DNA from: an uncultured Bacilli bacterium
Lineage (GTDB): Bacteria > Bacillota_I > Bacilli_A > RF39 > UBA660
DNA: 64,000 nucleotides
Reading direction: 5' to 3'
NCBI GenBank assembly: GCA_934130165.1
Contig: CAKOXO010000002.1
Span: 192,412-256,411 of the forward strand
Shown: piece by piece, positions 52,502 to 53,461 of the stretch
Layout of the letters: each line of letters opens with the position of its first letter
Numbering within the stretch: position 1 is the stretch's first letter
Made by a program: the position numbers and the translations under genes
Notes under the pieces: model-generated
Told to the model about the DNA's origin: nothing
What the model saw: only the letters and a program-made list of their open reading frames with translations
The model's database searches: none

Positions 52502-53461
52502 ATGATAAAATTATATCGAGGTGTATTTATGTTAAACAATATAACAACAAGTTGTGAATATGTATCATCTAATTCAAGACATGTATCTATTAATTTAAAA
52601 AAATTAAATAGTTTAGTTGAGAGTATAAATGATATAAAAATGGAACACTGGTTATCATCTTCTCCATTTGGACTATTAGATTTACCAGTTGAAACAATTA
52701 TAAATTTTTTATTAGTATATGAATCAATTGACTTCTCATTTTGGGGAAATCCTAAATGGTCTATTGATACAGAATACGGAAATTTAGATGGTTCTATAGC
52801 ATTATTATATGCAATACTAAAATATGTAAAAGAAAATAAAACTACTGATTTTTCTACTATAGAAAAAGATGAATTTGAAAGAGTTTTAAAAGGAAATATT
52901 CAAATACCTTTATTTGAAGAAAGGTTCAGAATAATAAAAGAAGTAAGTCAAATAGTTAATGAAAAAATGAATGGTAATTTTTATAAATATATTCAAAAAA
53001 TAAATTCAGATTATGAATTATTTGAGTTGATTGTAAATAATTTTCCAAATTTTAAAGATGAAAGAATATACAATGGACAAACTATATATATTTATAAATT
53101 AGCACAATTATTAACATCTGATATTCTTCATATAAGAAAAATGAAAGAAAATATAGATGTAGATTATAGTCACTTAATTGGATGTGCTGATTATAAAATA
53201 CCTCAAATTTTAAGAGCAATGGGAATACTAGTTTTTGATGACGAATTATCAAAACTTGTAGATAGCCAAACTGAATTACCTATAAGTTCAGAATATGAGG
53301 TTGAAATAAGAGCAAATATGTTAACAGTTATAAATATTATTAACAAACAATTAGACGGCAAATTTGATCGTATAGATATAAATGATTACTTGTTTATGAA
53401 GAAAAAAGATAAAACACTTGCATTAAAACCATATCATTTAACTAGATGTACTAATTATTAA
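52502..53461 (+). CDS. Qng1/DUF2419-family queuosine salvage protein homolog (queuosine 5'-phosphate N-glycosylase/hydrolase-like)
   Basis: 319 aa. Multiple colinear matches to the eukaryotic C9orf64/QNG1 family: ANSRxV, FSFWG...KW, PLFEERFRIIKE, NFPNFKDERIYNGQTIYIYKLAQLL, ADYKIPQILRAMGIL, EVEIRANML. The likely true start is the internal Met at 52529. Confidence 0.6.
   Translation: MIKLYRGVFMLNNITTSCEYVSSNSRHVSINLKKLNSLVESINDIKMEHWLSSSPFGLLDLPVETIINFLLVYESIDFSFWGNPKWSIDTEYGNLDGSIALLYAILKYVKENKTTDFSTIEKDEFERVLKGNIQIPLFEERFRIIKEVSQIVNEKMNGNFYKYIQKINSDYELFELIVNNFPNFKDERIYNGQTIYIYKLAQLLTSDILHIRKMKENIDVDYSHLIGCADYKIPQILRAMGILVFDDELSKLVDSQTELPISSEYEVEIRANMLTVINIINKQLDGKFDRIDINDYLFMKKKDKTLALKPYHLTRCTNY

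Follow-up and report, generated by a model that had tools for sequence, protein, structure and literature searches.

Why does a gene of queuosine (Q) salvage stand directly behind the recombinase of a mobile element, with a tRNA gene close by? The locus that raises this question lies in a stretch of 64,000 nucleotides (about 25% G+C) from an uncultured Bacilli bacterium (GenBank assembly GCA_934130165.1, contig CAKOXO010000002.1, positions 192,412 to 256,411), the whole of which is called the window here. A preliminary description of this DNA, made from its letters alone, had proposed that an open reading frame (ORF) at 52502-53461 encodes a homolog of the queuosine-salvage enzyme Qng1, carried as cargo next to a tRNA gene. 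Many gut bacteria and all eukaryotes have to scavenge the micronutrient queuine, and which organisms can free it from queuosine nucleotides affects how Q precursors are exchanged in the gut. Taking all lines of evidence together, we regard it as probable that the gene occupies the cargo slot of an integrative mobilizable element (IME) with a serine recombinase and a MobV relaxase, inserted at the 3' end of a tRNA-Gly gene, and that its product releases queuine for tRNA modification in the host.

Identity and active site of the cargo protein

The proposed family membership held up clearly. In the Pfam profile search, the check named in the preliminary description, the ORF, on the + strand, matched PF10343 (Q_salvage, formerly DUF2419) over positions 8-285 of the 285 of the profile, with E=2.5e-44 and 152.4 bits against a cutoff of 25. 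A single-sequence search of the Protein Data Bank (PDB) matched the five Qng1 sequences there, including those of Sphaerobacter thermophilus (StQng1; 7uk3/7u07, E=3e-33) and human QNG1 (7ugk, E=2e-26); with a 22-sequence profile the match rose to E=5e-44 and the alignment reached the very C-terminus. An AlphaFold2 model (pLDDT 84, pTM 0.80) led to the same family in Foldseek, where the top 11 matches were all Qng1/QNG1 with TM-scores of 0.66-0.75 (0.70-0.75 to 7uk3/7u07, 0.73 to 7ugk), followed by the DNA glycosylases AGOG and OGG1 at E>0.1. The predicted fold is a two-lobed, helix-hairpin-helix (HhH) glycosylase-like one with Qng1-specific insertions (beta2-beta3, beta4-beta5 and the C-terminal tail), the strand pairs of the model at 78-87 and 177-188 corresponding to the StQng1 insertions W76-G92 and R185-Y198.

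The start of the gene had to be moved from 52502 to the ATG at 52529. In every one of the best 120 database relatives, which are about 310 amino acids (aa) long, the alignment begins at ORF residue 10; a Shine-Dalgarno sequence GAGGTG (52518-52523) lies 5 nt ahead of the later ATG, and the gene callers on four metagenome contigs with an identical Qng1 protein chose it as well. The preliminary description had rightly placed the gene directly downstream of the recombinase (50759-52498, stop codon TAA 52496-52498), and had taken a gap of 4 nt to suggest co-transcription. This gap is an artefact of taking the in-frame upstream ATG at 52502 as the start: the spacer measures 30 nt, contains its own Shine-Dalgarno sequence, and is 3 nt even to the spurious ATG. 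Co-transcription itself stays plausible on the grounds given in the next section.

Residue roles described for StQng1 (PMC9881137) were transferred through a MAFFT alignment of the window protein, StQng1, human QNG1 and 125 relatives (121 representatives at 50% identity plus four closer homologs). The catalytic residues are kept, namely the nucleophile D231 (D221 in the window protein, within CADYK), the HhH lysine K199 (K190, within YKLAQ) and D207 (D198); D221 and K190 are invariant in the 22-sequence alignment and present in nearly all of the 125 representatives. Kept as well are the phosphate and ribose ligands Y232 and K233 (Y222 and K223), F75 (F71), E267 (E257), H316 (H303), W48 (W41) and the C-terminal Y323 (Y310, the protein ending in TNY), while I203 is replaced by the still aliphatic L194. 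In the 5'-phosphate pocket R80 has become K76 and the position of Q306 is taken by K293; with K223 and Y222 present, the charge character is preserved. In StQng1 the carboxylate of the C-terminal tyrosine forms part of the active site (PMC9881137). This mapping therefore shows an intact catalytic and ribose/phosphate machinery and a partly remodelled pocket for the cyclopentenediol side chain.

Boundaries, cargo slot and persistence of the element

The features on which the argument rests are the following.

50052-50125, + strand: tRNA-Gly(UCC) gene, the integration target (ARAGORN)
50120-50131, + strand: attL core, left copy of the 12-bp direct repeat GCTCCATTGAGG (exact-match search)
50126-60113, + strand: the integrative mobilizable element, named IME-A, 9,988 bp including an IS3 (repeats and comparisons)
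50759-52498, + strand: large serine recombinase of 579 aa, the element integrase (PF00239 1.2e-35, PF07508 3.4e-18)
52529-53461, + strand: Qng1 (Q_salvage, DUF2419) homolog of 310 aa, the cargo gene (profile, structure, alignment)
53470-53480, + strand: left half of the post-cargo hairpin, GAACACA plus the loop GAAA (comparison)
53481-54823, - strand: IS3-family insertion sequence of 1,343 bp with orfA 54739-54377 and orfB 54329-53520 (NF033516, rve, HTH)
54827-54841, + strand: right half of the post-cargo hairpin, TGTGTTC plus T8 (comparison)
55057-56292, + strand: MobV-family relaxase of 411 aa (PF01076 Mob_Pre 8e-29; NF041497 MobV 108 bits against a cutoff of 100)
60108-60119, + strand: attR core, right copy of the direct repeat (exact match and junction comparison)

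The 12-bp repeat occurs exactly twice in the window, at 50120 and 60108, and therefore sets off a unit of 9,988 bp. The HD-domain protein of the element is found identical in 513 index blocks. Ten long contigs (handles beginning with L denote the contigs and loci compared) were taken for a blastn comparison with the window. Two backbone blocks are 91-99% identical, 50049/50120-52531 and 54824-58348, the latter continuing to about 60115-60194 in four contigs, and outside these blocks the contigs differ from one another on both sides. The same element occurs in at least six different flanks (seven other contigs, with outer flanks differing left and right). In every copy the left junction consists of host sequence ending in GCTCCA followed by TTGAG. 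GCTCCA, the part of the att core common to all copies, forms the last 6 nt of the tRNA-Gly gene (50120-50125), and of nine sister contigs, seven have a tRNA-Gly gene as the left-hand host sequence (next to five intact copies and two decayed ones), its sequence and even its anticodon (UCC or GCC) varying between them; in the other two, the host sequence is not a tRNA, yet ends in GCTCCA. On the right, every copy ends in AAGGTTTAAAACCTTCYTATCAAMTGCTCCA, after which the sequences diverge, and in the window a T-arm-like stem AAGGTT-TAAA-AACCTT precedes the attR core.

The reverse comparison, with the same flanks around another element, gave the same ends. Contig L086, from the same host, is 99.9% identical to the left flank through 50128 and then continues with a different element, and three contigs of the same species (L124, L125 and L130) match the right flank at 98.4-99.9% identity as far as 60108, with the right end of another element in front of it. 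The ends were therefore placed at the same bases twice independently. A truly empty site was not recovered among the contigs compared. The crossover falls at or just past the CCA end of the tRNA-Gly gene, which stays intact. For the excised element, the sequence predicts an attP junction ...CTTATCAACTGCTCCA|TTGAGGTTAATACTCGC and a deletion junction in which the end of tRNA-Gly is joined to the sequence right of 60113; the attP junction would not be diagnostic alone, as tandem arrays yield the same junction as an excised circle. The tRNA adjacency noticed earlier is thus real, at 2.4 kb from Qng1, and concerns the integration site only: tRNA-Gly is not a queuosine tRNA, and its proximity to Qng1 is therefore purely a matter of integration, without a functional link.

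The recombinase shows an intact YPRVSTDGQ motif in translation; its best NCBIfam matches, CcrB and XisF, both lie below cutoff, and only generic large serine recombinase models fit. In the relaxase, the motif HMDEKVPHLH is visible. Among the genes of the 10-kb unit, no match to a type IV secretion system or coupling protein was found (Pfam and NCBIfam; PADLOC for some). With genes for an integrase and a relaxase but none for a mating pore, the unit is therefore an integrative mobilizable element by content.

Inside the element, homology of the backbone with the sister copies reaches the ATG of Qng1 (52531) and resumes at a hairpin just upstream of a 63-aa ORF. What lies between is Qng1 in the window, in L001-L004 and in L100-L102, a pair of 212-aa and 231-aa proteins in five sister copies, proteins of 212, 114 and 136 aa (weakly PNPOx-like) in two, and an NTP_transf_6 protein in three decayed copies. 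Judged from these alignments, cargo is exchanged in a slot that opens on the left with a ribosome-binding region and start codon, both conserved, and closes on the right with a terminator-like hairpin, conserved as well. The view of Qng1 as cargo of a mobile element is borne out by its place inside a bounded element and by the other genes at this position in sister copies.

The hairpin, GAACACA-GAAA-TGTGTTC followed by T8, is intact in the copies free of the insertion sequence (L100-L102) and in all cargo variants, and in such an IS-free copy it scores as an intrinsic terminator (8-pair stem, dG -12.8 kcal/mol, z -3.2). It also stands at the place expected for the origin of transfer (oriT) of a MobV relaxase, so that it may be a terminator or an oriT. 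In the window it is interrupted by the IS3 (NF033516 transpos_IS3, 165 bits with the cutoff at 160; rve and HTH domains also present), whose ends read TG...CA (TGAAC...CTTCA) and which is flanked by a 3-bp target duplication AAA at 53478-53480 and 54824-54826, in the hairpin loop. The IS3 is precisely absent from L100-L102, where window position 53482 is joined directly to 54824 and the Qng1 protein is 96% identical, and by this comparison it is a secondary insertion into the hairpin. The four contigs with the exact Qng1 protein of the window stop just after Qng1 because the IS3 is inserted there.

There is no terminator-like site between the recombinase and Qng1 genes, and a terminator-like hairpin follows the cargo, which makes co-transcription plausible; expression of Qng1 would then plausibly come from the recombinase operon. 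A promoter scan was uninformative in DNA of 25% G+C, with 44 promoter-like sites against 54 in shuffles, and since the A+T-rich sequence gives fewer sites than its shuffles, the conserved TATGATAAAAT before the cargo cannot be called a promoter. Upstream of the recombinase start, at 50610-50717, there is a good sigma-70-like site (TTGACT-17-TATTAT with TG) followed by a terminator-like hairpin with an 11-bp stem; this region may be a regulated leader of the recombinase-cargo transcript.

The wider family tells how the gene persists. It comprises about 1,900 representatives at 50% clustering, and relatives at 49-75% identity were found in 80 species-level genomes, metagenome-assembled genomes of uncultured gut Bacilli, Clostridia and "Tenericutes". 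About 70 of these 80 loci are without a recombinase within 10 kb (five have one) and without a tRNA-Gly just upstream (two have it), and their neighbours vary, the commonest over all the loci being housekeeping genes, namely NUDIX, peptide deformylase (Def), RumA, Ham1, MazG, ASCH and an Rsm22-like methyltransferase. Element sequence upstream of Qng1 is kept only in the clade of at least 76% identity, where the last recombinase codons still precede the gene in L098 (88%) and L105 (76%). One very prevalent species has Qng1 variants, found on 94 and 40 contigs, in a decayed element copy: the att core and the left-end hairpin come first, then the final ~45 nt of the recombinase gene, followed by Qng1, the hairpin and the 63-aa ORF fused to the C-terminus of the relaxase. 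Qng1 remains in copies without recombinase and relaxase, and its pairwise dN/dS is 0.12-0.33, element-borne pairs included. Selection therefore keeps Qng1 while the mobility genes are lost, as expected of useful cargo. Since the gene is found on the element in several contexts, is kept on decay and is under purifying selection, Q salvage would be horizontally traded in gut Bacillota and not only a property of lineages, and reconstructions of Q makers and users from gene content could therefore differ between strains.

Function of the enzyme and competing explanations

The protein is most likely a Qng1-type N-glycosylase that frees queuine from queuosine 5'-monophosphate or queuosine. In the mechanism we propose, the element would insert at tRNA-Gly 3' ends by its large serine recombinase, and the MobV relaxase would let a co-resident conjugative system mobilise it. 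Qng1 would cleave the N-glycosidic bond of queuosine 5'-monophosphate (or queuosine) by an Asp/Lys mechanism of the HhH-glycosylase type, giving queuine and ribose-5-phosphate, and the freed base would supply the host tRNA-guanine transglycosylase, directly or after conversion to preQ1. The element would thereby confer or reinforce queuosine salvage in gut Bacillota unable to make Q; the scavenging advantage suggested in the preliminary description is plausible. In this scheme we infer the substrate, the link to tRNA modification and the present-day mobility of the element. Gut Bacillota mostly lack queDECF, keep the bacterial transglycosylase bTGT and rely on Q precursors (PMC11130926), and the release of queuine fits this dependence.

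Several points weigh against this explanation. The pocket for the 7-substituent is altered relative to the characterised enzymes (Y93 to S89, W94 to I90, W302 to F289, N72 to D68, D69 to E65), and on these replacements the substrate could differ. In the queuine specificity pocket, to which W48, N72, Y93, W94, D298, W299 and W302 are assigned, W41 is retained at the place of W48. F289 belongs to an N285-D286-x-x-F motif where most bacterial members have ND..W, and many bacterial representatives likewise depart from the pattern of StQng1 and human QNG1 at positions 69, 72 and 93; these departures are a feature of bacterial subfamilies and not a sign of decay. Ten size-matched window ORFs held no tgt, queA, QueT/QrtT or other Q gene by Pfam, and a tblastn search for tgt found none in the window and 115 related loci (1.7 Mb), a weak negative, with a fragment of E. 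coli Tgt as query, that says nothing of the genome as a whole. The commonest host carries Qng1 in tandem island arrays whose other cargo is mostly anti-phage defence. The IS3 splits the hairpin, and if the hairpin is the oriT, mobilisation of the window copy may be impaired.

The chief rival, unlikely in our judgement, keeps the chemistry and shifts the substrate: the enzyme would act on another 7-deazaguanine nucleotide or nucleoside (preQ1, preQ0, epoxy-Q nucleotide, or glycosylated Q from host or diet) and feed a different entry of the Q pathway. It is favoured by the replacement of residues contacting the cyclopentenediol and the deazaguanine ring (Y93S, W94I, W302F, N72D) next to kept catalytic ones, by the departures of most bacterial representatives at 69, 72 and 93, and by a bacterial qng1-linked transporter that unexpectedly carried preQ0/preQ1 and not Q (PMC11130926). 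Against it stands the conservation of W48, of the aliphatic residue at 203, of the ND..aromatic motif and of every phosphate and ribose ligand, and the replacements are smaller side chains that would still admit Q.

A variant that we rate lower still, as quite improbable, is that the mobile Qng1 clade acts on another 7-deazaguanine nucleotide, such as glycosylated Q or one of phage type, and rides with defence cargo for policing of the nucleotide pool or for phage-host conflict, instead of or besides tRNA modification. Very unlikely, in turn, is a proper role in defence or counter-defence, in which Qng1 would break down nucleotides with 7-deazaguanine modifications or target modified nucleic acid of phages. 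The company of Qng1 copies in hotspot arrays, with CBASS (CD-NTase and Cap15), Abi_C, PIN_8 with HMUDK_hel and radical SAM, a restriction-modification (RM) system, nSTAND3 and ToxIN, and the HhH-glycosylase-like fold (PMC9881137) lend it some colour. PADLOC, on the other hand, returned nothing meaningful for Qng1, for the accessory genes of the element or for the alternative cargoes, the latter not being recognisable as defence genes, and no Q_salvage homolog occurs in phage or viral collections. Most related loci, as given above, are away from recombinases and tRNA-Gly, among housekeeping genes. In characterised Qng1 the specific beta-hairpins fill the DNA-binding cleft of the HhH-glycosylase-like fold (PMC9881137); the model predicts them at equivalent positions, together with the C-terminal tail that would occlude the cleft, which argues against the role of a DNA glycosylase.

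That Qng1 is no cargo at all, being a resident chromosomal gene beside an inserted element or a functionless decaying passenger, is scarcely credible: most homologs (49-75% identity) are indeed chromosomal and a 65% homolog adjoins GNAT and Sel1 homologs (L011, L013, L016 and L079), but the gene is enclosed by boundaries set by repeats and two kinds of comparison, 2.4 kb away on the left and 6.6 kb on the right, sister copies carry other genes at exactly its position, and its ORF is intact, with catalytic residues kept and the low dN/dS given above.

Known systems and neighbouring features

The Qng1 enzyme and the serine-recombinase/MobV IME are each of a known kind, and their combination appears to be unreported in the searchable literature. 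With the Qng1 of S. thermophilus (7uk3, 7u07, 7u91) and human QNG1/C9orf64 (7ugk), the window protein has the full-length architecture, the catalytic residues and the C-terminal tyrosine in common, whereas it is only 25-27% identical, has a remodelled 7-substituent pocket and is encoded on a mobile element of gut Bacillota instead of a Chloroflexi chromosome or a eukaryote. The description of such cargo as unusual was justified, Q_salvage homologs being essentially absent from mobile-element collections: there was none in 50,697 phage records and none in 2.9 M viral contigs (IMG/VR), and 72,556 plasmids gave one weak match, on an 816-kb Variovorax replicon.

IME-A resembles the Tn4451/Tn4453-type serine-recombinase IMEs of Firmicutes in its small size, the single terminal large serine recombinase, the Mob_Pre/MobV relaxase, the lack of pore genes and the short cargo, and also in tandem accretion with decayed relatives (PMC5704250), a likeness judged from their description. 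Its cargo is a metabolic salvage gene, while theirs is antibiotic resistance. IMEs with a site-specific serine recombinase are described as disrupting the genes into which they insert (PMC5704250), whereas the IME-A family has its insertion point just beyond the 3' end of tRNA-Gly, so that the tRNA stays intact. The targeting of a tRNA 3' end by a serine recombinase and the slot running from start codon to hairpin are two mildly unusual traits; a cleanly delimited serine-recombinase family with a fixed slot is handy for following how cargo turns over, and perhaps for engineering. Recurring att cores, a hotspot at the tRNA 3' end and decayed copies still with their cargo, though without integrase and relaxase, recall the tRNA-targeting islands that grow by tandem accretion (CIME/IME arrays, defence islands), but the arrays here arise from serine and not tyrosine recombinases, and defence cargo is mixed with a gene of tRNA-modification salvage.

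In Clostridioides difficile, QueK and QueL have the role proposed here for Qng1, obtaining queuine from Q-containing breakdown products in gut Firmicutes (PMC11130926, PMC9881137). QueK, a nucleoside hydrolase, differs in fold and mechanism, being an unrelated Ca2+-dependent Rossmann-type trimer that prefers the nucleoside, and no queL or ECF QueT/QrtT gene is linked to the window Qng1. A nucleoside hydrolase (IU_nuc_hydro) borders the array with the decayed Qng1 in L108 (18587-20002, - strand) and L109 (13902-14768, - strand); in some strains it is fused to an NT5C 5'-nucleotidase domain, and its NCBIfam matches are only weak and RihC-like. It could provide a parallel, QueK-like route.

The hotspot at tRNA-Gly/tRNA-Cys of the very prevalent gut species contains tandem serine-recombinase IMEs and decayed copies (L088, L090, L091, L096, L106-L123). 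Its cargo, for the most part defence-like, includes CD-NTase with Cap15 (CBASS), Abi_C with NUDIX and an Apyc1-like MBL, PIN_8 with HMUDK_hel and radical SAM/SPASM, nSTAND3 with DEAD and a methyltransferase, a reverse transcriptase, a Tsp45I RM system and SLFN/AlbA_2. Looser ties of Qng1 to serine recombinases or tRNA-Gly recur in distant relatives, for example L065, L038 and L035. In L035 (115-2025) a type III toxin-antitoxin system, ToxIN, lies between an upstream tRNA-Gly and Qng1 (62%); in L065 (368-10945) a tRNA-His, an orf107 homolog, a serine recombinase (37%) with NUDIX and recombinase fragments come before Qng1 (49%), the fragments directly so. In the four loci L011, L013, L016 and L079 (about 10001-12650) the 65% Qng1 is directly followed by homologs of the GNAT (75-80%) and Sel1 (59%) proteins of the element, in an order unlike that of the element. 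The idea that Qng1 is native to this neighbourhood, drawn from the GNAT/Sel1 synteny, was dropped once HD, GNAT and Sel1 proved to be part of the mobile unit with its mapped boundaries. Three distant representatives (P0239, P0351 and P0235) have Q_salvage fused to an N-terminal SAM-dependent methyltransferase domain, which hints at a coupled base-modification step, and in L075 and L078 Q_salvage makes up the C-terminal portion of ORFs of ~563 aa, behind ~255 N-terminal aa without an assigned family.

The remaining genes of IME-A are listed below.

50242-50541, + strand: small conserved ORF at the left end of the element, 99 aa as called, 107 aa from TTG 50218 (comparison)
54863-55054, + strand: 63-aa ORF just upstream of the relaxase, in all intact copies (backbone conservation)
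56383-57168, - strand: HD-domain protein, conserved accessory gene
57190-57714, - strand: GNAT, conserved accessory gene
57731-58357, - strand: Sel1-repeat protein, conserved accessory gene
58373-58879, - strand: 168-aa ORF, conserved accessory gene
58893-59938, - strand: frameshifted 348-aa element gene, a pseudogene here (translation compared with L089)

Counterparts of the small left-end ORF (91-99 aa) precede the recombinase in all intact copies, and in several related IME families (L086, L089-L097, L106) a small ORF always lies between the att site and the serine recombinase. It had no match in Pfam, NCBIfam or PADLOC and could be a directionality or regulatory factor. The 63-aa ORF had no family match in Pfam or NCBIfam. 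The accessory genes at 56383-58879 accompany the MobV side in every copy. The 348-aa gene, which is without a family assignment, is frameshifted after about codon 67 in the window and intact in L089 (7230-8276).

To the right of IME-A, 60114-60650 is a remnant of a second, tandem element, the left end of which resembles IMEs with orf91 and a 640-aa recombinase. The remnant includes an 80-aa fragment (60167-60409), with no Pfam relaxase match, whose DNA is 95% identical to the 3' end of the Mob gene in the neighbouring IME of L092, and a YhcG_C PDDEXK fragment at 60421-60648.

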